Source of the DNA: Shigella phage Sd1
DNA length: 48,262 nt
Sequence record: MF158042
Reading direction: 5' to 3' (one strand)
This document shows positions 26,410-45,259 of the stretch, in pieces; positions within the stretch are counted from its first letter, which is position 1, and the number at the start of each line of letters is the position of its first letter. The notes beneath the pieces are model-generated. The model made no database searches and was not told where the DNA came from. It saw nothing but the letters and a program-made list of their open reading frames with translations. Position numbers and translations under genes: made by a program.

Positions 26410-26413
26410 GATT

Positions 26414-26444: not shown

Positions 26445-26451
26445 TTGTAAC

Positions 26452-28735: not shown

Positions 28736-28736
28736 T

Positions 28737-29033
28737 TTATTTGTAGTCGCCGCCATTCTCAGCTTCATCAATAGTCTTTGGTTGCTTCTTAGGCTTAGCC
28801 TTGTCTTTAACTTCCTGCTCGATTTCTTTAGTTGCCTTGTGGTCATCCTCAACCTCAAGCTTGCCTTCAGCTACCAAAATCTTTAAGCCAACGGATAACT
28901 CCTCAACCTCGATAGTATCGCCTGGAAGATAATCTTTTGCGCCAAGACGGATAACACAAGCACCTTTATGTAACAGTTTCATTCTTTCCTCCTTTGTTTC
29001 GATTTTCAAATGATAACACACAAACTTAATCAA
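28737..29033 (-). CDS. Hypothetical protein
   Basis: ORF with Lys/Glu-rich C-terminus. Confidence 0.35.
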   Translation of the reverse strand: MIKFVCYHLKIETKEERMKLLHKGACVIRLGAKDYLPGDTIEVEELSVGLKILVAEGKLEVEDDHKATKEIEQEVKDKAKPKKQPKTIDEAENGGDYK

Positions 29034-29640: not shown

Positions 29641-29668
29641 ACAAAAAAATAGCACCCCGAAGGGTGCT
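29641..29668 (-). terminator. Rho-independent terminator after major capsid gene
   Basis: gcaccc-cgaa-gggtgc stem followed by TATTTTTTT on the minus strand. Confidence 0.6.
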
Positions 29669-29689
29669 TGTCATTGTCAAAAAGTGCTA
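29645..29689 (-). promoter_or_regulatory. Palindrome-type promoter P14 for HNH gene (variant site tagcactttttgaca, hairpin in spacer, TATTTT)
   Basis: Palindrome site right after capsid stop, GC hairpin in spacer, -10-like T-rich hexamer. Confidence 0.4.
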
Positions 29690-30637
29690 TTAAGCAAAAG
29701 TAATGCCCTTCATGACAGCCATCGTTAAAGGCCTAAACACGATCAGACCAGTTGCTTTAGAAGTCACTGGAACGCGGAAGTGCAGGTCTCGCGGCTGAGC
29801 AGGCAGAGCGTTTGTCGGCTCGGTGATCTCGATCGCCATGTTGTTAGCGTCTTTCTCATAAGCGATAGCTGCAGAGGTACCAGTTCCATTGTAATCATTC
29901 AGGTACTGAACAAACTCAACGGTTACGCCGCTATTGTTCTGGCGGAAGAATTCACCATAGCTAACAGACGTGCCAGGAACCAGGTTCTGCATAATACGAC
30001 GAGCGGTAGTAGGAAGAAGCAGGTGCGTAGCGCGGTGCTGACCGTTAGTTGAAGTCTCGATAATATCCAGCAGGCTTGTAATATCGCTTACCGCTGTAGT
30101 AGGTTGAGACCATGAGCCACCGCTAACAACGTTGTTGATATTTGGATAGTCGAACACGCTAGGGATTCCGTGAACGGTAGAGCCTGACCATACCAGTTTA
30201 TCAAGAAGCTTGTCGTGCGCTTCGAAAGCCAGAGACTGCTTGCGAGCAGACAGTGACTGACCAGTAGCCTGACCAACTTTAATTTCATCGATAGAAATCA
30301 GGAAAGCGTTACCGAAACGGAAAACTTTACCCTGGCGTTCAGTTGCCAAAGCATCAACCAGCGGCAGGTCATCAGTGTAGTCAGCTACGATCTGAGCAAT
30401 TCCAACACCATCAAATACCGGATACTCAAAGTACTTAGCGTAGCCAGGGATTTCATTGCTAACAGGGAACAGGTTTACTACGGAGTTCTGATCGTACTCA
30501 GTTTCGTAAGCTTTATTCAGGCTTGCAGTGAGCTGCTTCACGGTCCAGATACCAGCCGCGTCGGCTTTATCAACACCCATTGCGCGCAGGTGGTTAGTAA
30601 TCTTTTCTTGCTCGAAAGCGTCAAGTTTGATAGTCAT
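29690..30637 (-). CDS. Putative major capsid protein (start uncertain, 30637 or 30649)
   Basis: About 315 aa; sits in head module downstream of protease/scaffold and small Gly-rich protein; followed by strong terminator. Confidence 0.5.
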   Translation of the reverse strand: MTIKLDAFEQEKITNHLRAMGVDKADAAGIWTVKQLTASLNKAYETEYDQNSVVNLFPVSNEIPGYAKYFEYPVFDGVGIAQIVADYTDDLPLVDALATERQGKVFRFGNAFLISIDEIKVGQATGQSLSARKQSLAFEAHDKLLDKLVWSGSTVHGIPSVFDYPNINNVVSGGSWSQPTTAVSDITSLLDIIETSTNGQHRATHLLLPTTARRIMQNLVPGTSVSYGEFFRQNNSGVTVEFVQYLNDYNGTGTSAAIAYEKDANNMAIEITEPTNALPAQPRDLHFRVPVTSKATGLIVFRPLTMAVMKGITFA

Positions 30638-30736
30638 ATTAAGATGCATCCTTTTGTTTATGAGTTTACGTGTCAATTATACACGAGATTTTGATTGGAA
30701 CAATAGGCGATTCCTTTCGCCTTTAACTTTAATCCA

Positions 30737-32212
30737 CTATGCGAGAGGTTTGCTTAGGTTTTCCACCTTATAAGCGTAAACGCCTGCCAAAGTATCAGAT
30801 GAGTTCCTTATTCCAACTATTGTAAGCTTGAAGCATTTAGAGTCAGCCGTAGCTCCTGGTGATGTGGTTATGTAATGCTCAGATGTGACTCCAAAAACGC
30901 CTGGCTTGAATACGCTATTCCAAAGAGCGGCCCCAGGAGGCATGCTTGTTACTATCGCTGTGTAGTTTTTCAACTTATCAGCTGCAACTGTAGTGAGTGA
31001 GTCAATCTGGTATGCAGTGTGCCTTATTGAAGCGATATTTGCTGTACCAGTATTACTAACACCAACCCATAAACCCTTGGCTGGAACTGTGGCGTTCTTC
31101 TCTCCGGTAAGGGCGAACCTTATTGTTGTCTCTCCGGGTATATCTATAAAGTCAGTATCCGTCTGATTGATCAACCCCGACCTTACGCCTGAAGCTACGT
31201 TATAAGAGGCTGGACCAGCCACCCCCTGTAAGCCCTGAGGTCCCGTAGGGCCCTGCAATCCACGCTCACCCTGCGGGCCTGCCGGGCCTTGTGGTCCAAC
31301 TGCACCAGCTACACCTTGTAAGCCTTGCGGGCCGGCTGGGCCTTGCTCACCTTGCAGGCCCCTCTCGCCTTGTGGGCCTTGAATACCTTCCGGACCTGTC
31401 GGGCCAGTTGGGCCTGCTGGACCAGCGGAACCCTGTGGGCCTGGGGCACCCTGTGCGGCCAGTAACTCCCAGGAATCGCTAACATCTGGATTTTCTCCGG
31501 TCACGGCGGCGGTAGCAAACCAGCTAGAGTTGTTAAATGTAACGACATCATCTTTAACGTAAGCTGTCGCAGCGTCGTACATCCCGCGGAATGTTAAGCC
31601 TGCCGGACCAACTGGACCCGCATCACCTTTATCACCTTTAGGGCCGGCCGGACCTGCTGCGCCGGTTGCACCGATAGGGCCTTGCGGACCAGACTCGCCA
31701 GTTTCACCTTGAGGACCTTGCGGGCCTACGGGGCCAGCTGGACCAGTGTCGCCTTTGGCACCTGCCGAGCCTGCCGGGCCGGTAGCACCTGTTGGGCCTT
31801 GAGGACCCTGTGGACCAATAGCTCCTGCCGGGCCCGCTGGACCCTGTGGACCAACCGGACCTTGCGGGCCTGCTTCACCTGAGCCTCCTTCTTCATCACT
31901 TACAAAATCACCTTTCGCCAGCGCTGAAAGATAAGCACCATCTTCGAAGTGGGCATTGCCAAACCTGCGCCAGCCCTGGGCTAGATATCTGTTAACCCTG
32001 TTAACTAATCCCTGAATTGTGGTATCGGATGTCACCATGAAGTCTTCAACGTTGTTTGCTGTTCCTTTCGCCATCTTCATGCCAAAGAGGGTGCCGCTCA
32101 GCATCTGCACGTCGCCATATGGCTGGAATCCTGATGAAATCATGATTTTTACGTTTCTGGCTAAGATTTCAGGTGAATTCCCTACTGCCATAGCAATTTC
32201 TGTGTAAGCCAT
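30737..32212 (-). CDS. Collagen-like repeat protein (two Gly-X-Y tracts)
   Basis: Two long uninterrupted G-X-Y runs ([16 protein letters not shown]... and [22 protein letters not shown]...) flanked by globular N- and C-terminal domains; aggag SD. Confidence 0.8.
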
Positions 32213-32263
32213 CTCTATCTCCTGATTGGTTAATAATCATTGACAGTCTAACAGAAAATTGGC

Positions 32264-32287
32264 AATAAAAAACCTCCCGAAGGAGGC
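32264..32287 (-). terminator. Rho-independent terminator after SGNH gene
   Basis: cctcc-cgaa-ggagg stem followed by T-run on the minus strand; 20 bp identical to terminator at 33638-33657. Confidence 0.65.
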
Positions 32288-32293
32288 TTAATA

Positions 32294-33586
32294 TTACGCT
32301 CGAGACACTGAAAGGATTTCAACTCGCTCACCGGTCTGCAGGTATAGCTGTCCGGCAACGTCATTCTCATCAATGGCATTTACTACACCAGAGAAGATTC
32401 TTACGCCAAATCCCTTAGTCAGCCTTGCAACTACGTTAAATCCGCGAGGCTTAACTGGAACCATTAATGACTTCTGACCTGTGGCTGCCAGAAGAACTTC
32501 GCGAGCCATTGCCATACCCCTGAACTCATGACCCATAGCGCCAGGGTGAACCCTATCAGTTCCGGTGTATATTTCAGAGTTTGCTGCCGTTACATAATTG
32601 CTAATGTTGATTACTGGTATCCCGTTATCAGCACAGAAGCCATCAACCAACTCAACAACCCTCTGAGTTGTGGCATTCAATCCAATTGGTGTTGCGCAGC
32701 TAATCTGGATGATTGGTACATCACTGTAAGTCTTCCTGGTCTCCTCCAGGCACTCCGACATAGACCTAAGCAGCCACTCAGCCTTGCCAGGGTCATTTAT
32801 TGAAACTGAGTCATTATAACCAAGCGCCCACGAGATAACGTCAGGTTTTCTATTTAACGCTGCGAGCCTTGTCTTTACCCTGTTAATCGGGAACCTGCCC
32901 TCCTCTTTTGAAGTCCAGGCCGATCCACCAATCCCTTCGCAGATACCATCGAATCCAAGCGATCGACTAAAAGTATAGAAGTCGTTTACTGCAGGGGATG
33001 AGCCATAAGCCTGAGTCCTAAATCCCGCACCAGTACCAGCGGTGTAGCTATCACCCATCTGGTAAATGAATGGCCTTTTAATAGTAATATCCCTGCTAAT
33101 CGTGTCTAACGGACCGAATGCGAAAGAGCCAAATGCAGTGTTAACGCCATAAATCTCAATATGCCTTAACTTTCCGCTAACGACTCCATCATTGGCCTTC
33201 ACTTGAATCCAGCTAACACCCTCAGTGGTTGGTGTCGTGATAGCATCTAGGGTTACCAATTTACCGTCAACGAATATTGAGTAAGATGAAAGAGAGCCAA
33301 TGGTCTTAATTTCAAAAAGCCTTGAATCAGTCATAAACTCAAGTTTCATCTGAAGGCCATTCGAAGGCTTCTGACCAGTGTAAGACCCGCCTGAAACGTT
33401 ATCAAATCCGTAGGTTGTCCACATGAGATTGGTCTCATTAAGTCTATTGATAACTTGAGGGGTGGTAATTGATGTTGCGGCCCTGATTTCCTTGATTGCG
33501 GAAAACTCAGTCGATAGCTGAACTGGCTGCATAGTAGCCAAGCCGTTTTCAATATTTCTTTTTACCAAATCAATAAAGCTTGCCAT
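32294..33586 (-). CDS. SGNH/GDSL-family hydrolase (esterase) with N-terminal extension
   Basis: Block I GDSYT, block III GYND, block V DRVHPG in C-terminal half of translation. Confidence 0.7.
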   Translation of the reverse strand: MASFIDLVKRNIENGLATMQPVQLSTEFSAIKEIRAATSITTPQVINRLNETNLMWTTYGFDNVSGGSYTGQKPSNGLQMKLEFMTDSRLFEIKTIGSLSSYSIFVDGKLVTLDAITTPTTEGVSWIQVKANDGVVSGKLRHIEIYGVNTAFGSFAFGPLDTISRDITIKRPFIYQMGDSYTAGTGAGFRTQAYGSSPAVNDFYTFSRSLGFDGICEGIGGSAWTSKEEGRFPINRVKTRLAALNRKPDVISWALGYNDSVSINDPGKAEWLLRSMSECLEETRKTYSDVPIIQISCATPIGLNATTQRVVELVDGFCADNGIPVINISNYVTAANSEIYTGTDRVHPGAMGHEFRGMAMAREVLLAATGQKSLMVPVKPRGFNVVARLTKGFGVRIFSGVVNAIDENDVAGQLYLQTGERVEILSVSRA

Positions 33587-33634
33587 TTTCTTTCCTCCAA
33601 TTTTAAGTGAAACTAATTGTACCAGTTTACAGGC

Positions 33635-33659
33635 GTAAAAAAACCTCCCGAAGGAGGTT
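33635..33659 (-). terminator. Rho-independent terminator upstream of SGNH gene
   Basis: acctcc-cgaa-ggaggt stem followed by TTTTTTT on the minus strand. Confidence 0.65.
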
Positions 33660-33676
33660 TAGTTTAGCTTTGCTAA

Positions 33677-34147
33677 TTATTTCTGAATAACCTGAACTTC
33701 AACGAGAGCAGGCTCACCAGATACTGCGTCAGCGGCTTGGAAGCCACCCGCAAAGGTCCAGTTAGTGGTAACTGCTCCGCCGCTTGTTGCGGAACCATCA
33801 GTACCAATGGTAACAGCACTACCAAATGCAGGAGCAGAAGAAAGGCCGGTAACCATCCAGATTCGACCGTGAGTCATTACGTTAGCAACCTGGAAGTTAT
33901 CAATGTTACCAACAACACCACCGTAAGAACCGCGCGGGCTTTCGTAATGTGACTTCACCAGAACACCGTATACGTTATCGGCAACAGCGGAAACCAGAAC
34001 TTTGTGACCATCAGCATCAACAGAATCGACACCAACAGCATAACCAACACCCTGAACTACTCCGGTAGACATTACACATGCACCATCAATATTGTACAGA
34101 GAGGTATCTGCAACCATACCAGCAGTAGCTTGACGACGAATTGCCAT
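33677..34147 (-). CDS. Small Gly/Ala/Val-rich head protein (putative decoration/cement protein)
   Basis: 156 aa, beta-rich; position directly after protease/scaffold gene. Confidence 0.4.
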   Translation of the reverse strand: MAIRRQATAGMVADTSLYNIDGACVMSTGVVQGVGYAVGVDSVDADGHKVLVSAVADNVYGVLVKSHYESPRGSYGGVVGNIDNFQVANVMTHGRIWMVTGLSSAPAFGSAVTIGTDGSATSGGAVTTNWTFAGGFQAADAVSGEPALVEVQVIQK

Positions 34148-34158
34148 ATTAAGACTCC

Positions 34159-35262
34159 TTATTTTTTCAATTTAGCGAGGCGAGCGCGCGGGTTAAGAGT
34201 CTTAACTTCCGGTGCTGCATCAGATTTTTCCGCGCCAGCAACTGCTACACGGGCTTCAGCCATTTTATCAGAAGATTTGGCGATATCAAAGGCCGCATCG
34301 ATGTACGCATCAGATTTCTCAGCAACTTCAATACCAGACACTTCTTTAACATAAGCAACTTTGATTGCTTTAGCGTCCAGGCCATCACATTTAACGCCAA
34401 CTTCCGCAGCGGTAGCAACCAGAGCGGCAAGCTCATCAGCATCAGCTTTAGCTTTAGCTACGGCAGCTTCGATTTCGGCTGGGATGCCATCAACTTTAGC
34501 TTTCAGTGCGTTGCGCTCAGCTTCCAGGGTGTCAGCTTTGGCTTTTGCCTGCTCTGCATCAGCTTTAACAGCTTCGATGTGCTTAGCAACTTCCGTGGCG
34601 ATTTCGAACTCCTGCTCGCCATCCAGTTTAATCTTAATCATCAATTTATCCTCTTTATTTGATTGAACGGTATCAGTATACGGGTTTTCCTGCTCCCCGT
34701 CCAGATTGAGTTTTGCAATACCAGCCCTTCCGCGATAAACCATTGCAAGGTGATTAACCCTGATGTCTCGCTGAATACCATCAAACTCTTCGTACCCATC
34801 AGGAGCAATCTGCATTACATCTGTCTTAAGCACATACTCGCCAGTTAGTGGGTCGCCCCACCCTGGAGTCATGTCTACGAAAGCCTGATAGCCAACGGAT
34901 AACTCTTTCGCCTCGCCAGCCATAGCCTTTTCAATTGCGCTCTTGTCGTAAACAACGATTGGAGCAACAACTGCATTACCCATCTTCTCAGCCTTGCCAG
35001 AAATAGAGCCAACAACAACTTCTTTAGCGTTATCTGAGTTAACTTCTACATGGTCAAGCGTAACCGGCTTACCCTGAAAGCTGGAAAGAGAGGTGTCATT
35101 GAATACCTCCTCAGATGGCCTGAACTCCCTTACCGCATTGCCGTCAATGTCGTAATAAACCTGAACCCCAATTCGTGCCACCACAGGCGTATCGACGAGA
35201 AAACCGTTCTCATCAATTGCAGCCTTGAATATGGAGTTATCATAGCGCATCTTACTCTTCAT
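34159..35262 (-). CDS. Putative prohead protease/scaffold fusion
   Basis: Globular N-terminal domain followed by Ala/Lys/Glu-rich coiled-coil C-terminus (AEQAKAKADTLEAERNALKAKVD); position after portal. Confidence 0.45.
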   Translation of the reverse strand: MKSKMRYDNSIFKAAIDENGFLVDTPVVARIGVQVYYDIDGNAVREFRPSEEVFNDTSLSSFQGKPVTLDHVEVNSDNAKEVVVGSISGKAEKMGNAVVAPIVVYDKSAIEKAMAGEAKELSVGYQAFVDMTPGWGDPLTGEYVLKTDVMQIAPDGYEEFDGIQRDIRVNHLAMVYRGRAGIAKLNLDGEQENPYTDTVQSNKEDKLMIKIKLDGEQEFEIATEVAKHIEAVKADAEQAKAKADTLEAERNALKAKVDGIPAEIEAAVAKAKADADELAALVATAAEVGVKCDGLDAKAIKVAYVKEVSGIEVAEKSDAYIDAAFDIAKSSDKMAEARVAVAGAEKSDAAPEVKTLNPRARLAKLKK

Positions 35263-36529
35263 TAATCACTACCTCCTCGGCTAATTCTTCCTGAGCGGGT
35301 TGCTCCGGCAAGTTAACATCGCCATCCTGAAGCTTAACCTCTGTAGCGATGGTACGTAGTGTATCACGAGCTTCTTCGGTATTCATCACGCCAGCCGCAA
35401 TCAATGCGGCAACCGAGTTCACATTCTTCTCAAGAATCTCAGACTTATCCTTGTCACTAACCTGGGATAGTGGGTTAAATTCTACTGACCACTCTTGCTC
35501 AGTTACGATGAACGATAGCAGGAACTCAAGGAGAGGCAGTAATTCAGCCTTGCGCTTACGGTCAACATAACCATAGAAGGTCTCCAAAGCAGTGTTCTGG
35601 CTTGCTGATACGCCACCAACGTTTTTGCCCTTCAAGATAATCTCGTGAATACCGCTCAGAGCAACAATTCGGTCAAACTTCTGGCTCAGAAAAGTATCAA
35701 TCCCACCAATGTCTGAGTTGAGAACGTTGTATTCCTCGCTCTCCGCGTCAATGCCGATAGCCTGACCAACACCACTGTTGTTATCTACCTGCGCCAGTCG
35801 CAATCGAGCCGCGCCAAAACCATCTGAATCGTCACATAAGTCAGCAAGACCTTTTGCTTTCCAAACCGCCTGCTGTTTACGACGCAGTAACTGAGTAGCC
35901 AGTCGCTCACAGTTCTGATAGTCGTCAATAGCGTCGATTAAGTCACCAGTTAGTACGCTTGCTCCCCATCCGTCGTTGTTACGACGTAAATTGTTAGGTA
36001 CTCGCTCGCCATCAATGATATGACAACGTGTGTAGTGCACATCGTAGAACGTTGCCGCACCATTTGGCGTAATGCGGTAGGTTACTGGCTTACCAAAACG
36101 TGCGTTACGTGGATTCTCCTCGCGAGTCTGAACCCTCACTTGCTGGCGGTCGTATACGCGAACTGTTTCTAGTTCTGCACCATCACTAACTGGGCTGGTT
36201 AGCGCCCTGCTATCCTTAACAATTGCCACTACAGCAGCGCCACCGTATAACCTGGCCCATGCCAGAGCGTCGATTACACTATCCGAAAGGTCTAGGTCAT
36301 CCCAACGAGACCAGAACTTGCCTTCATCGTCGATACCTTCGATGTTAAAGCCAGCGCCAAGTGCGACCTCTGGCACGATATCAATAATTCGGCGAACTAG
36401 TGCGCTACTGACGTAAAGCTGCTCAAGCTGAGCTGGAGCTGTTAGGCCAAGGCCGCCAAACTTTCCGTAAATCTCGCTACCATCACTCCCGTTAAGAAAG
36501 ATGTTTGCGTAGCTGTCTGCTTTTACCAT
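35252..36529 (-). CDS. Putative portal protein
   Basis: 425 aa directly downstream of terminase large subunit region. Confidence 0.5.
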   Translation of the reverse strand: MVKADSYANIFLNGSDGSEIYGKFGGLGLTAPAQLEQLYVSSALVRRIIDIVPEVALGAGFNIEGIDDEGKFWSRWDDLDLSDSVIDALAWARLYGGAAVVAIVKDSRALTSPVSDGAELETVRVYDRQQVRVQTREENPRNARFGKPVTYRITPNGAATFYDVHYTRCHIIDGERVPNNLRRNNDGWGASVLTGDLIDAIDDYQNCERLATQLLRRKQQAVWKAKGLADLCDDSDGFGAARLRLAQVDNNSGVGQAIGIDAESEEYNVLNSDIGGIDTFLSQKFDRIVALSGIHEIILKGKNVGGVSASQNTALETFYGYVDRKRKAELLPLLEFLLSFIVTEQEWSVEFNPLSQVSDKDKSEILEKNVNSVAALIAAGVMNTEEARDTLRTIATEVKLQDGDVNLPEQPAQEELAEEVVINEE

Positions 36530-36540
36530 GTAATTTCTCC

Positions 36541-36567
36541 AATAAAAAAAGCCCCTGAGTAGGGGCT
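36541..36567 (-). terminator. Rho-independent terminator upstream of portal gene
   Basis: agcccct/aggggct stem followed by TTTTTTTATT on the minus strand. Confidence 0.6.
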
Positions 36568-36587
36568 AGTGTATCACAGAGTTTTGA

Positions 36588-36914
36588 TTACTCGAACTTG
36601 ATTTCAAATTTGACTGAAGACACTTTGGCGCCAAGTCTATCAGCCTCATTTAGCTCGCCAATTAACTCGTAGAAGTAGCTTTTTTGCACCAAGTTGCCAT
36701 TGATATAATACTTTAGGCTTGCTGGCTCCTCAAATAAATCATCATCTTCTACTATTTCGAAATCATAGACACTGCTATTGTCAATTGAGACGCGGCAACC
36801 ATTATCATCAATTACAAATTTGCACTTATACCCATCATTAATCTGATATTTCATACCTTTAGTGAAGTTGAAAAAGCTATCATCCATTTTGTAACCTTTA
36901 AAAATTGCCTTCAT
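36588..36914 (-). CDS. Hypothetical protein (108 aa) between terminase and portal
   Basis: ORF with gagaggag SD, own promoter P7 and downstream terminator. Confidence 0.45.
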   Translation of the reverse strand: MKAIFKGYKMDDSFFNFTKGMKYQINDGYKCKFVIDDNGCRVSIDNSSVYDFEIVEDDDLFEEPASLKYYINGNLVQKSYFYELIGELNEADRLGAKVSSVKFEIKFE

Positions 36915-36943
36915 TTCATATCTCCTCTCGTTTTGATGAGTTG

Positions 36944-36986
36944 ATTATACGCCATCCCTGGCGATTGTATTTAGCAATTCGTGCTA
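36944..36986 (-). promoter_or_regulatory. Palindrome-type promoter P7 (tagcaattcgtgcta, 22-bp spacer, TATAAT)
   Basis: Perfect palindrome overlapping TerL stop codon, consensus -10, leader caactcatcaaaacgagagg. Confidence 0.6.
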
Positions 36987-38564: not shown

Positions 38565-38658
38565 AGCATGATTGGTGAGGTGATAATTATTGAAACCAGA
38601 GCCAGAACCTTAAAGTCCTCAGCATATGATTTGCAAATAAACTTTTTGCTCTTAATAA

Positions 38659-39174
38659 TCATAGCTTCTCCATAATAGATTCAAGTGCGGCCTTCATAGC
38701 TTCCTCGTCGTTAACTACCGCATTAGAAGCGTTGTTGATGTTAACCTCTTGCGGCTTGTCGATACCAAGGTCTTTGCCAATCAGTCCAGGGTTGACGATG
38801 TTGTTAACACCCAGCTGATACTTCTGCTCAAAGATGACCGAATCCACAAACTCCATCACCTCATCGAATCCAGGCGAAGATCGCCATTTACTAATGGCAT
38901 TATGACCTACACCGCAGAAAAGCTGGAAGCCAGTTATCGTAAATACTCTCGGCTTGTGAATAAGGTTTTCTGTTACGACGCCCTGAAAGCTAGCCGTTTC
39001 AATGGCCTTAATCGCTTGCTCTTCAGCCCAGCTGAAATACCTGACGGCCATGTCGAATACCTGTTCAGGGGTGTACCTGTGGTTAATCTTCAGATTGGCA
39101 ATATCGCCATACTTCTTGTTATACAGCTCCTTGAAGTTTCCTATCTTCTGGTGAATCTTTTTCTCTTCTGGCAT
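38659..39174 (-). CDS. Putative terminase small subunit
   Basis: Position immediately upstream of TerL; 171 aa. Confidence 0.4.
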   Translation of the reverse strand: MPEEKKIHQKIGNFKELYNKKYGDIANLKINHRYTPEQVFDMAVRYFSWAEEQAIKAIETASFQGVVTENLIHKPRVFTITGFQLFCGVGHNAISKWRSSPGFDEVMEFVDSVIFEQKYQLGVNNIVNPGLIGKDLGIDKPQEVNINNASNAVVNDEEAMKAALESIMEKL

Positions 39175-39219
39175 GTGATATTCCTCCTGTTTTAAAAGTC
39201 ATTGTACCATGAGTACGGA

Positions 39220-39246
39220 CGAAAAAAAGCCCTCACTAGGAGGGCG
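39220..39246 (-). terminator. Rho-independent terminator upstream of terminase genes
   Basis: gccctc...gagggc stem followed by TTTTTTTC on the minus strand. Confidence 0.6.
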
Positions 39247-39273
39247 AAGAACTACATTGCGAGATTACCAATC

Positions 39274-39459
39274 TCAAACGAGGGATACTTTATCAACGCT
39301 GACTTTGTGGACTTTCAGGTCGATCTTAAATGCTGCCTTTGCAGCTGAAACTGCTTCTTCAGGGCTGTTAGCAAGAAACCTACCTTCGTAGGATTGCTGG
39401 CAAGATTTGCATTGCCTTCCCATTAGGCGGGAAGTTAAACGGACTTCGTAGTTATTCAC
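39274..39459 (-). CDS. Hypothetical protein (GTG start)
   Basis: ORF with ggag SD 8 nt upstream of GTG. Confidence 0.3.
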   Translation of the reverse strand: MNNYEVRLTSRLMGRQCKSCQQSYEGRFLANSPEEAVSAAKAAFKIDLKVHKVSVDKVSLV

Positions 39460-39475
39460 TAGGATGCTCCATGAT

Positions 39476-39551
39476 TGGCGTTCCGCGCTGGACTCGAACC
39501 AGCAACTGAGACTTAGGAGGTCTCTGCGTTATCCTGTTACACCAGCAGAAC
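39476..39551 (-). tRNA. tRNA-Arg (anticodon CCU)
   Basis: Manual fold: acceptor GTTCTGC/GCGGAAC, D-arm GTGT/ACGC, anticodon stem GAGAC/GTCTC with loop CTCCTAA, T-arm GCTGG-TTCGAGT-CCAGC, discriminator G and encoded CCA. Confidence 0.6.
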
Positions 39552-39556
39552 TTAAT

Positions 39557-39630
39557 TGGCACGGGATGTTGGAATCGAACCAACCTCTTTGGTTTTGGAG
39601 GCCACTATTCTACCAATGAACTAACCCCAT
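39557..39630 (-). tRNA. tRNA-like gene, possible tRNA-Trp (anticodon CCA); anticodon stem non-canonical
   Basis: Acceptor ATGGGGT/ATCCCGT with two G-U pairs, D-arm GTTC/GAAT, T-arm GTTGG-TTCGATT-CCAAC, encoded CCA; anticodon stem has only 3 Watson-Crick pairs. Confidence 0.4.
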
Positions 39631-39911
39631 TTTGTTAGATGCCGGTTACGGAATCCGGCGAGCTTTCACAATGCTCCGACTATATCGAGTTACCACATCG
39701 ATTGGTTCGCTTCGCGAAGTTCTCAATGCATAACTGCGGTTTATTTGCCTCGTATCTTTACCCAGCCCGGCTATCGGCTTGCATCTCCGCGATGCGCGTT
39801 ACGGTCATTGCCGTCTACGTGGTTAATACTAACCACTTTTAACATTTACGTCAAGCCATGACGACGAAATAAATCCAAGTCAACATGCCAGCCAGTAGCC
39901 AGATTGATAGC

Positions 39912-40151
39912 TCAGTCATAAATGTTACTCCCATCTTCACGCTTACCGCAGCGTCCTGCCAGATAACCGGAAACCCAAACGAAGCGCATCTTCTCGATGA
40001 TTGTACTGACTGGGCTATGGAACTCACAGATAACCGCCTTCATGATGTCGTTATCTTGCTTCTGCTTGCTGGTTAGCTTATCCACTGCCTCGTTTAGCTT
40101 CTTAGCCTGGGCGCGCACTGCGTTGAATTGTGGTTGAGTAAGTCCGAACAT
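39912..40151 (-). CDS. Hypothetical protein
   Basis: ORF. Confidence 0.4.
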   Translation of the reverse strand: MFGLTQPQFNAVRAQAKKLNEAVDKLTSKQKQDNDIMKAVICEFHSPVSTIIEKMRFVWVSGYLAGRCGKREDGSNIYD

Positions 40152-40235
40152 TTAATATTCCTTTTTAGCTGCCACATAGTCAAGAATAATCCAAAGAACA
40201 ACTGGAATAGCTAAACAAATGATTATCTCAAACAT
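40152..40235 (-). CDS. Small hydrophobic peptide (27 aa), not in ORF track
   Basis: MFEIIICLAIPVVLWIILDYVAAKKEY; gaagg SD; stop directly abuts next ATG. Confidence 0.3.
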   Translation of the reverse strand: MFEIIICLAIPVVLWIILDYVAAKKEY

Positions 40236-40711
40236 GATTAAGCCTTCTTGTAAGATTGAATGTCGCCGCCGAGTACTGTATGTTGTGCTTTTGCTGCTTC
40301 ATAACTATCGTGAACAATCTTATGCATCACGCTGTTAAACTTGCCAGTGTAGTATGTATGGACCCAAATCATTCTTCAGTCTCCCATCCATCAATAAGAG
40401 CTAAAGGCACTCTAACATCGCCGTTAAATGTTTCAAGATACCAAAACTTATCGCACTCCTTAATGCTGAATACATCAATCTCAGTTGTCTTGCCAGTCTT
40501 CCAGAAGATTCTTACAGTTTTCATTTTTTATCCTCGCGCTCACGCCACATATTCATCAATTCAAAGTAGGCCATTGCCTCATCGCCATCCTTTGCCTCAT
40601 CCATCATCTTTTTGCACCACTCATAAGGTGATTGTTCTTTAAGCCAGTGTAGCTTTACCACTTTATCAGCCATTACTCAACCCTCTCATACTCAAATTCA
40701 CTGATACTAAC

Positions 40712-40882
40712 CTAATTTCCAACACTAACAAACTCAGTTTCACGAATTGCGTGGATTGATAGATCTCCATTATTGTACTTACCTGACACCTCTACAACAT
40801 CGCCAACTTCGAACCCGCATTCGCGAAGTGTGATGGACTCGTCATCAGTAACATAATCAACATCGATAATTTTAATTTTCAT
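40712..40882 (-). CDS. Hypothetical small protein (56 aa), not in ORF track
   Basis: ATG preceded by leader aatcgaaacgaacgaggaag and promoter P8. Confidence 0.35.
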   Translation of the reverse strand: MKIKIIDVDYVTDDESITLRECGFEVGDVVEVSGKYNNGDLSIHAIRETEFVSVGN

Positions 40883-40912
40883 TTCTGCTTCCTCGTTCGT
40901 TTCGATTTAGTA

Positions 40913-40955
40913 ATAGTATCGCATCCTTGCGATTGATGTTTAGCAATTAGTGCTA
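40913..40955 (-). promoter_or_regulatory. Palindrome-type promoter P8 (tagcaattagtgcta, 22-bp spacer, TACTAT)
   Basis: Same architecture. Confidence 0.5.
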
Positions 40956-40956
40956 T

Positions 40957-41292
40957 TTACCAAGGAAGGCCGTCTTCCCATTCGTAAGTATCAGACCTTT
41001 TTTCTATGAATGAATTATTTACTTTCATCATATCCCCGCTAACCACAAATCTTTTATTTTTCTTATTAATATCCTTATGAGCGTATAGCTCCTTAGCTTT
41101 CTGCAGTGACTCAATTGAGTCATCAATGTCAGTGAGGTAGTCTTTATGTCCGCGTAGACCTGTACATAGCATCTTCTTGATTGCGTGCTGAGTTGCTGGG
41201 TCTGTTACCTGGAATGCATCCAGAACGCGATATACATCAATAGTAGTTACCGTGCCATCCAGACCAATAATCTCTCGGTTGTACTTACTCAT
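40957..41292 (-). CDS. Hypothetical protein
   Basis: ORF. Confidence 0.45.
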   Translation of the reverse strand: MSKYNREIIGLDGTVTTIDVYRVLDAFQVTDPATQHAIKKMLCTGLRGHKDYLTDIDDSIESLQKAKELYAHKDINKKNKRFVVSGDMMKVNNSFIEKRSDTYEWEDGLPW

Positions 41293-41548
41293 ATATCAAT
41301 CCTCACGCTCTTCAGGAAAGCTGATACCAAGCTCATCTCCATCGCACCTAGTTGGCTCGCCATATCCTTCATATAGTTCGATGCATTCATCAATGTAAAA
41401 ATTACTGTATTCGCCATTATGAATCTTCATATCTCAATCCTCGTTATTGTGCCGCCATGCGTCTTCTGCATCAACATGGCGTATCTATCGTCTACATAGT
41501 GCAGGAGCATATCAATACCCCTGCTACTGAACTTGTGTTCGTAGATTA

Positions 41549-41788
41549 TCACTTGTATTGACTAGCCAGCTGGCAACCTGATAGTGCGGTGCAAATCTGC
41601 TCGTATCGGCTCCATGCTGTATCCGTATCCCACGGGAGCTCATCGTTATCATCGAACTCTTGGTTGCGAATCTGATTTAGAACCTCATTGATAACGCCTG
41701 AATCCTGGAACATCCCTTTTGAGTCAAAGTACTGAAGTGAGACTTTGAGCGCAAATGCGTGCTCTTCTGATAGATTGATGGTAATCAT
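41549..41788 (-). CDS. Hypothetical protein
   Basis: ORF downstream of promoter P9. Confidence 0.4.
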   Translation of the reverse strand: MITINLSEEHAFALKVSLQYFDSKGMFQDSGVINEVLNQIRNQEFDDNDELPWDTDTAWSRYEQICTALSGCQLASQYK

Positions 41789-41830
41789 GTTAGCTTCCTC
41801 TCGTTTAATTGCCTTTGCTTCAATAAGGCC

Positions 41831-41873
41831 ACTATATCAAATGGCCTTGCGGAAGGTTTACCAATTCGTGCTA
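41831..41873 (-). promoter_or_regulatory. Palindrome-type promoter P9 (taccaattcgtgcta, 22-bp spacer, TATAGT)
   Basis: Same architecture; site overlaps stop codon of upstream gene. Confidence 0.5.
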
Positions 41874-42074
41874 TTGCGGTTTATTATTTTTGTTATACCA
41901 CTCAGCACAGGATATCCACGCAAAGAATGCCGTATTTGTTTGTAAATCAATATACTGCTGGTCTTCGTGCTTAGTCATTGGGTATTGGGTTCTCTGCAAG
42001 TCAAATCCAGTTTTCTTGGTGGCCCAATGCTCGAAGTCTTCTCTGACATTTTTGCATTCGTCTAAATCAAACAT
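41871..42074 (-). CDS. Hypothetical protein
   Basis: ORF. Confidence 0.4.
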   Translation of the reverse strand: MFDLDECKNVREDFEHWATKKTGFDLQRTQYPMTKHEDQQYIDLQTNTAFFAWISCAEWYNKNNKPQ

Positions 42075-42622
42075 TATTTAGTCTCCTTAATCATTTCCTG
42101 GTAAGCGTTAATCATTGCCACCGCGCCCTTAAGTTCTTCACCTTCAAGTCCAGCAACGCTTGGTGACAGCTTGAGCAATCGAGATTTAAACCTTTCAATG
42201 GTTGCTGCCTCCCTCTCCGATTCCTGCTTTTTCTTCTCGCGACTTCCAGTCCAGTGCGCGCCGTTCTCAATGTATATTACCAGGTATTTATCTGCGCCAT
42301 CACCATCGAAGCTACCAGGGTTTACCTGCTCGCCATCCTCATCAATCCAGATGAACTTATAGCGCGCTCGCTTGTTTGCATCTCGAAGCTCGGTCATTCT
42401 CGAAACCGTATTATAAATGTATGAGTTCTTTAGTTCCGGCATCGCCCTATCTGCAAGGTTTAGGATCTCACTGGTCTCCTCATCATACTGCATCTCAGGG
42501 TATTCTTTCCCGCGAACCAGCTTGAATATCTGGCTAACCGGAACTTTGAACTCACCACCCTCAGACGCCATCGCGTTACGAACCATCTCGCGGATAACTT
42601 CACCTAGTGTTACTTTCTGCAT
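42074..42622 (-). CDS. Hypothetical protein (182 aa), first gene of leftward early block
   Basis: ORF immediately downstream of AT-rich hub. Confidence 0.45.
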   Translation of the reverse strand: MQKVTLGEVIREMVRNAMASEGGEFKVPVSQIFKLVRGKEYPEMQYDEETSEILNLADRAMPELKNSYIYNTVSRMTELRDANKRARYKFIWIDEDGEQVNPGSFDGDGADKYLVIYIENGAHWTGSREKKKQESEREAATIERFKSRLLKLSPSVAGLEGEELKGAVAMINAYQEMIKETK

Positions 42623-43252
42623 GTTAATACCTCGTTTGGTTTACTTCGTTTCAGTGATTGCTATATTGCCACCTATTTACGTGTCGGTCAATGTATATTT
42701 TAGTATATTTTATCATGGATACGCATTTTTCCTCTCTAGCCCGCACCAGCACGGATTGTAAACCTGCCGTATCCCCTGTATACAGTTTTTTGAGGTTATT
42801 TCCTATATATGCGCCTTTTTATTCCTACAATATCATCCCTTTCTGACAGGTGTCAGAATATATGCGCGGAACATATCAACCATTCCATCCATGACCGGTA
42901 TACACGGTATACATATATATAATAATAATAATAATAATAGAGTAAAAGGTTGATATATATAGATATTATATTGTATATCGAGTGTATATTGGCGTAAAAA
43001 ACGTAGGTTAGTGTTCACTAACTTTTGTGACGACACTGAGTATACGTAGGATACGCGTATATCATTAAATGGCTCAGCAAGAATCAAAATCAACTTGTAT
43101 GGTAGTCCATCCATCTTTCATTCACTCACTCATCAATTCATTGCTCAATTCGCAACAATCAAAAACATCATTGCATCTGAAGCAACATTGCTATATGTGC
43201 AATAATCATGTGAATCATTGCAATAGCTGCAACAAACCATAAATCGAACGAA

Positions 43253-43296
43253 TAGCACTTTTTGCTAATGACCATTCAGCCCTGATTGGTTATATT
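43253..43296 (+). promoter_or_regulatory. Palindrome-type promoter P10 (tagcactttttgcta, 23-bp spacer, TATATT)
   Basis: Perfect-arm palindrome, -10, leader cattacatcaacaacgaggag. Confidence 0.55.
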
Positions 43297-43324
43297 CATT
43301 ACATCAACAACGAGGAGATAAAAC

Positions 43325-43549
43325 ATGAATGCGATTATCATTAACAACGAAATCAAGTATGACAAAGATGCATTAAGCCTGGCTGATATGGGTTATGAAA
43401 TTGGTGAGAAGGTTCACCTATCAGTTTGCCAGTTAAGTGGTGAGATGTACTTAACTGTTAAGCAAGACTTAGTAATCGATGGAATCGTTGCTGTCTATGC
43501 TGGAGAAGAGATTTGCGTTAGTGACGATGAAGTGGAGATGATGGCATGA
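43325..43549 (+). CDS. Hypothetical protein
   Basis: ORF. Confidence 0.4.
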   Translation: MNAIIINNEIKYDKDALSLADMGYEIGEKVHLSVCQLSGEMYLTVKQDLVIDGIVAVYAGEEICVSDDEVEMMA

Positions 43550-43785
43550 AGGTTCGCTGCACTAACGTCATCCAGAGCACAGATAAGAAAGTATTAACGC
43601 CGTTCGTAAAAGGCTCTGTATACGACGCTGATCCGCTAATCATTAACGGCAAGACAATCCCGAACGAATGGGTAATTAATGGTGCTGAGAGACCGCACAA
43701 GCACGATACGGGGTGGATTGCTATTGCTGGTTGGAAGGTTGGTATGTTTATCCCTGGCATCGCAACTTTTGACGAGGTGAAATAA
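43546..43785 (+). CDS. Hypothetical protein
   Basis: ORF, ATGA overlap with upstream gene. Confidence 0.4.
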   Translation: MKVRCTNVIQSTDKKVLTPFVKGSVYDADPLIINGKTIPNEWVINGAERPHKHDTGWIAIAGWKVGMFIPGIATFDEVK

Positions 43786-43937
43786 TGCTTAAGCCATCTG
43801 ATTTGAACTATTATGATCTAGAAACTATAGCTAAATACAGCGGCAAAGGTTGGCCTGTTGGTGACTACTTCAAGGAAGATTTAATTGAAAGCTTTGAAAT
43901 AACACAGAAAGCAATTGAGAAGGCAAAGAAGAAATGA
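43785..43937 (+). CDS. Hypothetical small protein (50 aa), not in ORF track
   Basis: TAATG and ATGA overlaps with neighbours indicate translational coupling. Confidence 0.3.
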   Translation: MLKPSDLNYYDLETIAKYSGKGWPVGDYFKEDLIESFEITQKAIEKAKKK

Positions 43938-44617
43938 AAAAGGTAATTTACTGCCTGTTTGATGGTTCAGGTATCGCTGGCCTGCCATGGGCTGAGAATG
44001 GTCACACAGTCTACTGCTTCAACGCGGACTCAGGTAATCATGGCGAATATCACATTAAGATGCAGCATGAGAATATCCACTATATCAACATGTGGATTGA
44101 TAAGGATTTCATCACTAAGTGCGAATTGCTCGGGCTTCCTCCGGCGCAGATGGTTATCGGCTTCCCTGATTGCACGCTGTTCTCTCAGTCAGGATCACAG
44201 CATGAGCGGGGTGAAGATGAACTGGCGTACGCCCTGGCTAATGCTAAGCTTGTCGAAGAGGTTGGCAATCACTTTAATGCTCCATGGATGGTTGAGAATC
44301 CGGTAGGTAAGCTGTCAACTCTATGGCGTAAGCCTGATTTCTATTTCAACCCGTATGAGTACGGAGGGCTAATGAATGCTCATGATCTGCCGTACCACGA
44401 AAAAATGCCAAAATACGACGGATACACCAAGAAAACTTGCATCTGGCATGGCAACGGATTCGTTGAGCCAGTGAAGAATCCCGGGCCGATTAACATCGGT
44501 TTCTTTTGGGGATGGAAGTACCTCGGCGGGAAGTCTGCTAAGACTAAGCAGTTGCGCTCACTGACTCCACGTGGATTTGCGCGCGCCGTATACCTGGCGA
44601 ATCATTTAACCAAATAG
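43934..44617 (+). CDS. Compact DNA methyltransferase-like protein (C5-cytosine MTase-like motifs)
   Basis: Motif I-like LFDGSGIAG near N-terminus, motif IV-like GFPDCTLFSQSG, motif VI-like ENPVG; no DPPY/NPPY seen. Confidence 0.45.
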   Translation: MKKVIYCLFDGSGIAGLPWAENGHTVYCFNADSGNHGEYHIKMQHENIHYINMWIDKDFITKCELLGLPPAQMVIGFPDCTLFSQSGSQHERGEDELAYALANAKLVEEVGNHFNAPWMVENPVGKLSTLWRKPDFYFNPYEYGGLMNAHDLPYHEKMPKYDGYTKKTCIWHGNGFVEPVKNPGPINIGFFWGWKYLGGKSAKTKQLRSLTPRGFARAVYLANHLTK

Positions 44618-44657
44618 CACGAATTGCTAAAGCCCTTCGGGGCTTATGCTGTATATT
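44615..44657 (+). promoter_or_regulatory. Palindrome-type promoter P11 (tagcacgaattgcta, hairpin in 22-bp spacer, TATATT)
   Basis: Site overlaps MTase stop codon; spacer contains agccc-ttcg-gggct hairpin; leader catatcatcgaaacgaaac. Confidence 0.55.
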
Positions 44658-44695
44658 CATATCATCGAAACGAAACACACTAAAGGAAAGTAATC

Positions 44696-45049
44696 ATGGC
44701 TACCACTCTGACTAAGAATTTTGTTTCTAGCGAAAACAAGTTATATAAAGCTCGAGTAAAAGATGGTGTAGAGCAAATTAAACTCGATGGAAAATGGGTT
44801 AACCTAGGAATGATGGGTCATTACATTAAAACAAAGACACTGCTTTGCACCAAGGTTGACCATAGCAATCCGCTAAAGAAATCTTTCACTGAAGGCAAGC
44901 GTTATCAGATTGATATGCACGCAGGGTTGGGTCGCAATGCTGGCTATATCTATGATAATGACGGTGACGGATGGCAGCTCACTCTCGATGATGAAGTTGG
45001 TTATGATGTTGGTTTTGGAATGTATAAATTTGAGGCCGCTTACAAATGA
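44696..45049 (+). CDS. Hypothetical protein
   Basis: ORF. Confidence 0.4.
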   Translation: MATTLTKNFVSSENKLYKARVKDGVEQIKLDGKWVNLGMMGHYIKTKTLLCTKVDHSNPLKKSFTEGKRYQIDMHAGLGRNAGYIYDNDGDGWQLTLDDEVGYDVGFGMYKFEAAYK

Positions 45050-45231
45050 AGAGGATTAGAGTTTTATGCTCGGCCACCAGAGATATAGTGGTAGGTGGCG
45101 AAGTAATAATAAAGGCTGGACATACATTTAAGTGCTATATGGTTGGTGTTGGTCATTATTATGTCAATAGAAAAGGGATGAGATTTAACTTGATTGATGG
45201 TGAGTTTAAAGTAAATAGCATTTTTTGTTAA
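45046..45231 (+). CDS. Hypothetical protein
   Basis: ORF, ATGA overlap. Confidence 0.35.
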   Translation: MKRIRVLCSATRDIVVGGEVIIKAGHTFKCYMVGVGHYYVNRKGMRFNLIDGEFKVNSIFC

Positions 45232-45259
45232 TGACACTACCCGCTTCGGCGGGTATATT
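45216..45259 (+). promoter_or_regulatory. Palindrome-type promoter P15 (variant site tagcattttttgtta, hairpin in 23-bp spacer, TATATT)
   Basis: Site overlaps stop codon; spacer contains cccgc-ttcg-gcggg hairpin; leader caatcgataacaacgagagag. Confidence 0.5.

Follow-up and report, generated by a model that had tools for sequence, protein, structure and literature searches.

The closest described relative of the element considered here is a 21-nucleotide (nt) direct repeat, aaATAGCACnnnTTGnTAAAA, which the 2024 re-annotation of phage TLS reports at 21 places in that genome (PMC11447400); there the repeat is oriented with transcription, lies about 76 nt upstream of start codons, is also recorded in T1, Rtp and Rogue1, and has its function left open, a stoperator, an enhancer site and an UP-like element being listed. 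The same source relates that Roberts et al. (2004) resolved the late region of T1 into "transcriptons", with flanking rho-independent terminators, sigma-70 promoters and "perhaps enhancers"; in T7, class II terminators have been found to act as E. coli extended -10 promoters (bioRxiv 10.64898/2026.02.12.705533). The present analysis concerns Shigella phage Sd1 (sequence record MF158042; "the window" hereafter is the whole stretch of 48,262 nt) and, in particular, three gene junctions, after the major capsid gene (site 1), after a methyltransferase-like gene (site 2) and before a helicase-like gene (site 3), at which a palindrome, a GC-rich hairpin belonging to the RNA of the upstream gene and the -10 box of a predicted promoter are packed together. 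By similarity, the window is classified as a T1-like siphophage of the family Drexlerviridae: Shigella phage Sf12 is 94% identical to it over the structural genes, and Rogue1, JK06, C119 and other Rogunavirinae also match.

The palindrome is denoted DR in what follows, a label that covers both the 15-bp palindrome TAGCA-N5-TGCTA and the published 21-nt direct repeat; judged by its sequence, the element of the window is the Drexlerviridae repeat itself. Set against the consensus, the DR reads aaATAGCACGAATTGCTAAAG at site 2 and aaATAGCATTTTTTGTTAATG at site 3, while that of site 1, taATAGCACTTTTTGACAATG, departs at one position; from the start of the DR to the ATG there are 73, 81 and 76 nt at sites 1-3, compared with the published distance of about 76 nt. 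Seven exact and five one-mismatch copies of the palindrome are found in the 48 kb, about 0.1 exact copies being expected by our own arithmetic.

At all three sites the stop codon, the DR, the GC-rich hairpin and the -10 box lie inside about 45 bp, site 1 on the minus strand, like its genes, and sites 2 and 3 on the plus strand (Table 1). The capsid stop codon, TAA at 29690-29692, directly adjoins the DR of site 1; at site 2 the stop codon (TAG, 44615-44617) is formed by the opening three bases of the DR, the TAG of TAGCAC, and at site 3 it (TAA, 45229-45231) overlaps the 3' end of the DR, as the TAA of TGTTAA. Shortly past the stop codon, the sense strand can form stems of 7, 6 and 7 pairs at sites 1, 2 and 3, respectively, closed in every case by the RNA loop C(UUCG)G; scored against dinucleotide shuffles, the folds have z values of -3.82, -2.48 and -3.61, matched by 0, 2 and 1 of 200 shuffles, and these scores, together with the over-representation of the palindrome, exclude a chance origin.

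The three sites differ in the details of their promoter and terminator signals. Read in the sense direction, site 1 runs TAA-TAGCACTTTTTGACA-ATGACAA-GCACCC-TTCG-GGGTGC-TATTTTTTT, its candidate -10 box, TATTTT (29646-29651), being preceded by the TGc of an extended -10 and merging into a run of T (29643-29649). The 23-bp spacer of sites 1 and 3 opens with ATGACA, which matches the sigma-70 -35 hexamer at five of six positions; the promoter of site 3 is joint top of the 40 promoter-like sites found by a scan of 28300-48262. Site 2 has neither a -35-like hexamer at 17 bp nor the TGn of an extended -10; its hairpin adjoins the palindrome, ends 6 nt before the -10 box and is followed by AUGCUGUA, with 3 T in 8 nt and no U tract. 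The tail of the site 3 hairpin, UAUUUAUA, has 5 T in 8 with A interspersed, and a terminator scan picks sites 1 and 3, not site 2. The initial annotation had placed a hairpin between palindrome and -10 box at these three sites, with stop codon, palindrome, stem and -10 packed into some 45 bp, and both its coordinates and the overlap of the elements at every site are borne out; of the TTCG or CGAA loops that it listed, the tetraloop stands, while CGAA is simply the minus-strand element read on the plus strand, and the hairpin, which it had equated with the whole spacer, does lie inside the spacer but leaves the first 6 nt (ATGACA) outside at sites 1 and 3 and falls short of the -10 box at site 2.

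The anatomy of the unit was defined by a scan for the DR in nine genomes, namely the window, AHP24, Sf12, ETEP102, TH30, two Klebsiella Weberviruses, Msk and T1. A TAnnnT hexamer stands 21-25 nt from the DR in 126 of 157 DR matches, an arrangement expected by chance (on our own estimate) at about 8% of sites; these 126 units, of which 119 are unique, number 14 in the window and 10-18 per related genome. Their spacing is nearly fixed, the DR-to-TAnnnT spacer being 22 nt in 93, 23 nt in 16 and 22 ± 1 nt in 120 of the 126, and the hexamers themselves are TATAGT, TATTAT, TATATT, TATGAT and similar. Beyond TAnnnT there follow 6 nt and then the conserved leader ATCGAAACGA(A); the predicted +1 is A in 104 of the 119 units, and a Shine-Dalgarno sequence and start codon come at most 60 nt downstream in 116 (median 26 nt). 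In 39 units the -10 box has TGn in front of it, and -35-like hexamers (ATGACA, ATGACC, AAGACA) are specific to the 23-nt spacers, 17 bp from the -10 box, most members of the family scoring no better than three of six for this hexamer; the orientation of the unit always agrees with the downstream gene. Since the spacing is fixed and TAnnnT, the +1 A, the Shine-Dalgarno sequence and the start codon accompany it, this evidence argues strongly that the DR/-10 units are promoters of the host sigma-70 polymerase.

If +1 is taken 7 nt past the -10 box, the DR spans -49 to -35 and is centred at -42 with a 22-nt spacer, and at -43 with one of 23 nt. The "activator site" of the initial annotation fits this geometry, with its centre near -42, and the activator itself is putative, no binder being shown in the available part of PMC11447400. 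Other identities of the DR were considered and discarded: its TTGCTA half cannot serve as a -35 hexamer at 22-23 nt, a spacing incompatible with sigma-70, and IHF, CRP and FNR sites, the T4 MotA box and the UP element do not fit in spacing or in conserved bases. The leader ATCGAAACGA(A) starts at the predicted start site, as seen at 44664-44676, 3904-3916(-) and 14240-14252, at most DR promoters and in all nine genomes, the initial transcribed sequence of these promoters being unusually conserved.

The stop codon of the upstream gene also occupies preferred positions. Among 102 sites with such a gene, it lies at offset 0 from the DR in 44 (the TAG of TAGCAC), at -4, that is 4 nt before the DR, in 18, and at +13 in 12 (the TAA at the DR 3' end, GCTAA); DR-embedded stop codons in the window include 3963-3965, 3122-3124, 36984-36986 and 44615-44617. 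With its built-in stop, the DR sequence is thus a coding signal and a regulatory signal at once.

The three sites are not a special device; they prove to be the strong end of a continuum that runs through the family. A significant hairpin between palindrome and start site is present in 11 of 15 palindrome sites of the window, and the 119 unique DR promoters of the nine genomes average z = -2.78, 66% reaching p <= 0.05 and 54% p <= 0.01 against shuffles; a restriction of hairpins to three sites is ruled out by these counts. Two arrangements can be distinguished. In class A, which includes sites 1-3 and also weaker hairpins of 5-6 bp such as the one at 36950-36963, the entire stem-loop is in the spacer and mostly ends exactly at the -10 box. 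Class B stems straddle the -10 hexamer, which is placed within the loop or next to it: the spacer supplies the 5' arm and the 6-nt discriminator the 3' arm, which stops immediately short of the predicted +1, as in GGGGUA...UAUAGU-UACCCC of T1 (T1 positions: 1451, 2270, 4345, 4865 and 47632) and at 3915-3939(-), 11725-11744(-), 41825-41848(-) and 6974-6998(+) of the window. The arm sequences vary from site to site with pairing retained; class B arms covary between sites (GGGGUA/UACCCC, AAGGCC/GGCCUU, GGGAGUA/UACUCCC), include G-U pairs and have no U tract downstream, the sequence after them, AUCGAAAC, containing 0-2 U (on average 0.81 T in 8). Many stems of the family are just 5-6 bp, with free energies of folding (dG) of -4 to -7 kcal/mol. 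At some sites, such as 48869 (minus strand) in the genome designated L005, a hairpin of class A (CCCGGUC-AGGGA-GAUCGGG) shares bases with one of class B (GGAGAU...AUCUCC), so that only one of the two can form, which resembles an attenuator-like alternative fold.

Three independent tests point to these hairpins as parts of the upstream gene's RNA, not of promoter recognition. Where a same-direction open reading frame (ORF) ends at the DR (102 sites), the mean minimum free energy is -10.5 kcal/mol and the mean z -3.09, 75% being significant, whereas at the 17 sites with no such ORF, mostly divergent promoters, the corresponding values are -4.8 kcal/mol, -0.91 and 18% (p = 6e-6; p = 1e-4 when collapsed to 68 sequence clusters). 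The fold is more stable in the sense than in the antisense reading at 91 sites versus 28 (p = 6e-9), and 100 of the 855 pairs in sense folds are G-U, compared with 56 of 811 in antisense folds (p = 0.001). Finally, the commonest loops in the sense reading are UUCG, GAAA and NGGA. The dependence on an upstream gene, the strand asymmetry and the sense-strand loops are therefore the grounds for assigning the hairpin to the upstream RNA; and as an upstream gene predicts the hairpin and promoters lacking such a gene also lack the hairpin, promoter function needs no hairpin. A main role in promoter recognition is rejected by this with/without comparison; the effect of the hairpin on factor binding that had been suggested at the outset finds no support, given both the hairpin-free promoters and the RNA-like strand asymmetry.

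As to termination, the clearest case is site 1. Every genome examined has a hairpin and a T-run behind its capsid gene, the stems differing (GCACCC/GGGUGC, CCACCC/GGGUGG, AGCCCUC/GAGGGCU, AGCCAUCC/GGGUGGCU, and others in T1, TH30 and the Weberviruses); in the site 1 family alignment of eight sequences 93.8% of cells are paired, six of the eight pairs show two-sided compensatory changes, none of 500 shuffles attains the covariation score, and the T-run does not vary. This hairpin is predicted with confidence to be a strong intrinsic terminator of the capsid transcript, and a fourth module, absent from the initial annotation and placed behind the major tail gene at 26411-26459, is of the same kind: its stop codon (TAA, 26452-26454) lies inside a degenerate DR, the tail-chaperone gene is downstream, 7 T in 8 nt past the stem equal the count of site 1, and the AHP24 record has an overlapping terminator and promoter at the equivalent place. 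Both have all the features of classic terminators of highly expressed structural genes. The start of the tail assembly chaperone gene itself is probably 26379 rather than 26409.

Site 3 is probably a moderate, partial intrinsic terminator; its stem is identical in Sf12, AHP24, ESCO41 and Opt-79, a class B hairpin takes its place at this junction in T1, TH30, ETEP102, CJ19, RobRod40 and Msk, and in AHP24 the UUCG hairpin stands before the helicase gene with neither DR nor -10 box. Seven genomes share an unchanged site 2 stem, which has decayed in AHP24, ETEP102 and Msk; among six relatives, four have UUUUCCUG after it, where the window has the poorer tract UUAUGCUG, and the name "terminator" is doubtful here, a weak terminator or a 3' stabiliser being the apparent alternatives. 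The T1 GenBank record places terminators at 38973-39001, 39998-40024 and 41980-42007, inside the DR-to--10 intervals that belong to the T1 DRs at 38954, 39977 and 41957. The notion of a single element that ends one transcript and restarts another, also put forward in the initial annotation, is partly supported: it fits sites 1 and 3 and is weak at site 2, with its 3 T in 8 and its decay in some relatives.

Table 1. Coordinates of the genes, sites and putative DR promoters of the window (DR, direct repeat; promoter and terminator elements are predictions)
Feature	Position	Strand	Basis
Major capsid gene	29690..30676	-	Pfam Major_capside, E = 2.8e-39; ORF list
HNH/AP2 homing-endonuclease gene, downstream of site 1	29026..29616	-	Pfam HNH_3 + AP2
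Site 1 DR TAGCACTTTTTGACA	29675..29689	-	palindrome scan
Site 1 -35-like hexamer ATGACA, 17 bp from TATTTT	29669..29674	-	promoter scan 9/12, TG before second hexamer
Site 1 hairpin AGCACCC-UUCG-GGGUGCU, dG -12.2 kcal/mol	29651..29668	-	folding, terminator scan
Site 1 TATTTTTTT, U tract and candidate -10	29643..29651	-	7 T in 8 nt past stem
Methyltransferase-like gene, upstream of site 2	43934..44617	+	relatives' annotation as DNA methyltransferase
Site 2 DR TAGCACGAATTGCTA, perfect palindrome	44615..44629	+	palindrome scan
Site 2 hairpin AAGCCC-UUCG-GGGCUU, dG -8.8 kcal/mol	44630..44645	+	folding
Site 2 -10 box TATATT, 22 nt past DR	44652..44657	+	spacing scan
Site 2 predicted start site and conserved leader ATCGAAACGAAAC	44664..44676	+	start codon 44696
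61-aa ORF, upstream of site 3	45046..45231	+	stop TAA 45229-45231 in DR 3' end
Site 3 DR TAGCATTTTTTGTTA	45216..45230	+	palindrome scan
Site 3 -35-like hexamer ATGACA, 17 bp from TATATT	45231..45236	+	promoter scan 10/12
Site 3 hairpin UACCCGC-UUCG-GCGGGUA, dG -11.7 kcal/mol	45238..45255	+	folding, terminator scan
Site 3 -10 box TATATT	45254..45259	+	predicted start ~45266
DUF3987 helicase-like gene, downstream of site 3	start codon 45292	+	Pfam scan
Fourth terminator-in-promoter module, after major tail gene	26411..26459	-	hairpin GGCCCUC-GCAAU-GAGGGCU 26426-26444, T-run, TATAAT 26411-26416
DR promoter, class B hairpin GUGAGGUGGUG/CACUUCAU with G-U pairs	3915..3965	-	stop TAG = DR start
DR promoter, class B hairpin GUGAGGUA/UACCUCAU around TATAGT	11725..11775	-	folding
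DR promoter before primase gene, hairpin GGCACUGUGC...GUAUAGUGCC over -10 box	6953..7002	+	dG -15.4 kcal/mol, two G-U pairs
DR promoter after large terminase gene, hairpin CGCCA-GGGA-UGGCG (36950-36963) against TATAAT	36937..36986	-	folding
DR promoter, hairpin AUCGCA-AGGA-UGCGAU against TACTAT	40906..40955	-	folding
Divergent DR promoter of helicase gene, hairpin-free internal negative control	6418..6466	-	z = +0.49; no upstream same-direction gene
Conserved phage Cro-like HTH (helix-turn-helix) protein, candidate DR binder	6480-6965	+	P22_Cro, E = 3e-6, below Pfam cut-off

A model can be proposed in which most early gene junctions of this phage would follow one compact plan. The stop codon of the upstream gene would lie in or against the 15-bp dyad, TAGCAC-N3-TTGnTA, centred near -42; a -10 box (TAnnnT) would follow 22-23 nt past the dyad and, 6 nt further on, an A would open the leader ATCGAAACGA, succeeded by the Shine-Dalgarno sequence and the start codon. 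The host sigma-70 polymerase would need nothing for recognition beyond the DR and the -10 box, with ATGACA in addition where the spacer is 23 nt, so that some 16-22 nt of spacer, the middle of the -10 box and the 6-nt discriminator would be left free and could hold the 3' hairpin of the preceding gene's transcript. A GC-rich hairpin that has a UUCG cap and ends at a T-rich -10 box or discriminator would act as an intrinsic terminator whose U tract is supplied by the -10 box, strongly at site 1 and at 26411-26459 and moderately at site 3; incoming polymerases would then release their RNA a few nt before the start of the new transcript, a release that may set the stoichiometry of capsid and tail proteins and prevent occlusion of the promoter by read-through polymerases. 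With a poor U tract, as at site 2, or with a 3' arm placed in the discriminator, as in class B, the hairpin would more likely stabilise the 3' end or direct its processing, and would terminate little transcription. The simplest reading of the hairpin placement is compaction; the anatomy, conservation, covariation, strand asymmetry and context dependence are directly observed, and the model as a whole, with the hairpin of the upstream RNA set in the free sequence of the promoter, appears to us rather more probable than not.

Several points weigh against it. The sites compared between genomes are partly orthologous, so that the statistics overstate their independence, although the result survives clustering; and a literature search for start-site, transcriptome or transcript-mapping data on Drexlerviridae found none. 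At least 5 T in the 8-nt tail are found in only 21% of class A and in no class B hairpins, site 2 having 3, and the word terminator therefore fits only a minority of the hairpins of the family; the stems of sites 2 and 3 are either invariant or replaced wholesale in 5-7 further genomes and are uninformative on covariation. At site 1, the capsid terminator occurs without any DR in T1, AHP24 and ETEP102, and in Sf12, JK06 and Opt-79 a DR-like dyad is accompanied by a separate TATAAT, 44 nt on, with the usual leader, so that the TATTTT of site 1 may be only a U tract. Promoter activity of the DR/-10 units, actual termination and the identity of the DR-binding factor are matters that we infer within the model.

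The explanation that best survives beside it would make the hairpins mainly intercistronic elements of mRNA stability or processing: most polymerases would read through, cleavage would occur in the A-rich leader, the hairpin would then shield the upstream cistron from 3' exonucleases, and true terminators would be few (capsid, major tail). The T-poor tails just described and the short, weak stems of many members speak for it, as does the exchange of classes A and B at the same junction between lineages, which suggests a shared role that needs no U tract. It is opposed by the canonical stems and T-rich tails of sites 1, 3 and 26459, which the terminator scan calls, and by the invariance of the T-run past the capsid hairpin; moreover, no processing site or RNase motif has been identified. 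As a general account it is unlikely, and it is better seen as the other end of the same continuum than as a true rival, fitting site 2 above sites 1 and 3. The hairpins seem to form a continuum, and those of site 2 and class B more probably serve to stabilise the 3' end of the upstream cistron, or to mark it, than to stop much transcription.

A broader version of the compact-junction model would join all these features into a "relay" selected throughout the family, with the stop codon in a factor site, the 3' hairpin in the spacer or discriminator and RNA release within the -10 box, class B as a second device and the DR read by a global regulator of the host. In it, class B may be a processing or stability signal that gives read-through RNA a promoter-type 5' end, or may couple firing to upstream transcription. 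We hold this joint reading to be decidedly improbable in its entirety; if true, it would tie the early programme of T1-like phages, which have no polymerase or sigma factor of their own, to host physiology.

The doubts about site 1 bear on another alternative, in which the DR/-10 units of the three sites would not be promoters at all, the DR being a stoperator-type roadblock or repressor site and TATTTT or TATATT the tail of the terminator. Stoperators are indeed among the possibilities named by the TLS authors (PMC11447400); besides the DR-less capsid terminators of three relatives, this alternative can appeal to the site 1 leader, which is without the ATCGAAAC motif, and to an inverted DR at 7996-8010, which lies downstream of TGcTACAAT in an operator-like position. 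It does not explain why the spacing is 22 ± 1 nt in 120 of 126 units and TAnnnT so far above chance, why the unit always points towards the gene that follows, with A as the predicted first nucleotide and the start codon some 26 nt beyond it, or why it is present in divergent intergenic regions that have no terminator; ATGACA at 17 bp at sites 1 and 3 and TGn at site 1 are equally against it, and the HNH endonuclease gene, placed behind a strong terminator, needs some promoter. The alternative thus appears to fail for the family, on spacing and downstream anatomy, might hold for site 1 alone, and is very unlikely for the three sites together.

Returning to the promoter reading of site 1, a canonical DR is found exactly 23 nt before TATTTT in the genomes that carry an HNH endonuclease gene directly downstream, a label that the relatives' records give at the position of the 29026-29616 gene. 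The DR-23-TATTTT arrangement is retained in three diverged versions (window/C119/phiKP26, Rogue1 and phiEB49), the DR sequences differing and the consensus being kept; because of this retention, of ATGACA at 17 bp and of TGc, the sequences suggest that the site 1 unit drives the inserted endonuclease gene, even if it is the least certain promoter of the three. In the late region DR promoters go with extra genes that are absent from some relatives, namely the HNH/AP2 gene at 29026-29616(-) and a 108-amino-acid ORF between the large terminase and portal genes (36588-36914, minus strand) that has no Pfam match; mobile genes may carry or recruit DR promoters.

The least probable of the explanations considered is a DNA-level role in the promoter, in which a cruciform or a hairpin of the non-template strand would alter the binding of activator or polymerase, or present the -10 box in single-stranded form, by analogy with the hairpin promoters of phage N4: the hairpins do lie exactly between DR and start site, the class B loop holds the -10 hexamer, and a non-template-strand DNA hairpin tolerating G-T wobbles would also fit the strand asymmetry, but the divergent helicase promoters of five genomes keep DR, spacing and -10 box with no hairpin, the position and class of the hairpin float freely relative to the -10 box, the sense-strand loops are of the RNA-type UUCG or GNRA, loops of 9-12 nt are unfavourable to cruciform extrusion, and the same UUCG hairpin stands in AHP24 at a junction without DR or -10 box. 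Nor is a polymerase or sigma gene annotated in the T1, Sf12, AHP24 and ETEP102 records, or found in the available part of the TLS analysis (PMC11447400).

If, as the compact-junction model supposes, the DR is a factor site, two candidate binders can be named. The E. coli Lrp consensus is yAGhAwATTwTdCTr (PMC5554404), and DRs match it at 11-13 of 15 positions, random 15-mers of the window having a mean of 6.06 and only 0.1% of them reaching at least 12; host Lrp is therefore a lead, a candidate on motif-to-motif resemblance. The second is the conserved Cro-like protein of the phage (Table 1). The inverted DR of the divergent helicase promoter (6452-6466) lies in the 5' untranslated region of the Cro-like gene, 13 nt upstream of its ATG and downstream of TACAAT, an arrangement that suggests autoregulation if the protein binds the DR. 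A perfect DR at 7996-8010, between the primase terminator and the lateral tail-fibre gene, is likewise reversed and lies 6 nt downstream of the extended -10 TGcTACAAT, possibly in an operator-like position or as part of an antisense promoter directed at the terminator; six genomes in all retain it, the five besides the window at 33562 (L003), 47648 (L004), 23040 (L006), 44023 (L007) and 34903 (T1).

Some observations on neighbouring genes may be added. The methyltransferase-like product of 43934-44617 has no Pfam domain, its label being taken from the annotation of relatives alone. An Rfam scan gives no match in the region of the sites and detects only two tRNAs elsewhere, adjacent genes at 39479-39551(-) and 39560-39630(-), where the Sf12 and AHP24 records list a single tRNA-Arg. 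The ORF at 30737-32212(-), between the capsid region and a decoration-like gene, contains repetitive GGN-rich DNA and is labelled inconsistently in relatives, as collagen-like protein, tail fibre or "DNA polymerase"; its annotation in the public records is probably mistaken.

Should the model hold, the DR would be recast as the upstream element of a fixed-geometry promoter, which would account for terminators lying "inside" promoters and would offer a testable model both for this long-unexplained repeat and for the insulation of transcription units in T1-like phages, common contaminants of laboratories and industry and candidates for phage therapy. Annotation would also gain, current records marking only sigma-70 look-alikes and calling terminators separately, and synthetic biology might find here compact natural terminator-plus-promoter parts of about 60 bp.

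Compared with known systems, the ingredients (repeat, terminators, promoters) are familiar, overlapping signals are to be expected in compact phage genomes, and no new principle is involved; what is undescribed, in the parts of the literature consulted, is the DR-to--10 geometry, the stop codon in the DR, the systematic placement of the hairpins, their dependence on an upstream gene and the -10-spanning class. The direct repeat of TLS has the same sequence, orientation and distance to start codons as the DR of the window, but in the available part of the TLS paper it is treated alone, with no description there of a fixed -10 distance, an embedded stop or hairpins (PMC11447400). In the T1 and AHP24 records, terminators are already marked at hairpins resembling those of sites 1 and 3, with one overlapping terminator/promoter pair in AHP24; these annotations do not relate terminators to the DR, and they include neither the hairpins that span the -10 box nor the link to an upstream gene. 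With canonical intrinsic terminators, and their C(UUCG)G or GNRA loops, site 1, 26411-26459 and, less clearly, site 3 share the 7-pair GC-rich stem, the loop of 4-5 nt and the T-rich tail past a stop codon; they differ in that the U tract doubles as the -10 box and discriminator of the next predicted promoter and the stem lies inside the promoter spacer, while site 2 and most other hairpins of the family have no U tract.

In class II activator-dependent sigma-70 promoters, CRP or FNR sites are centred at -41.5. The DR units resemble these in combining a 15-bp dyad near -42/-43 with a good -10 box, most of them with a -35 hexamer that is poor or absent; unlike them, the subclass of sites 1 and 3 has its own ATGACA, the dyad then lying upstream of a complete promoter, and the activator is putative. 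The promoters of the N4 virion RNA polymerase contain hairpins that are recognised as DNA by the phage polymerase and are required for initiation. A short hairpin at the promoter is common to both systems, but the hairpins of DR promoters are dispensable where there is no upstream gene and behave as sense RNA, and the records of relatives contain no polymerase gene. Finally, as in the class II terminators of T7, one short sequence would both stop and start transcripts, with an extended -10 within the terminator; the T7 signals, however, are hairpin-less, serve the T7 polymerase and were come upon by accident in constructs, whereas the modules described here would be natural hairpin terminators for the host polymerase, distributed throughout the family.

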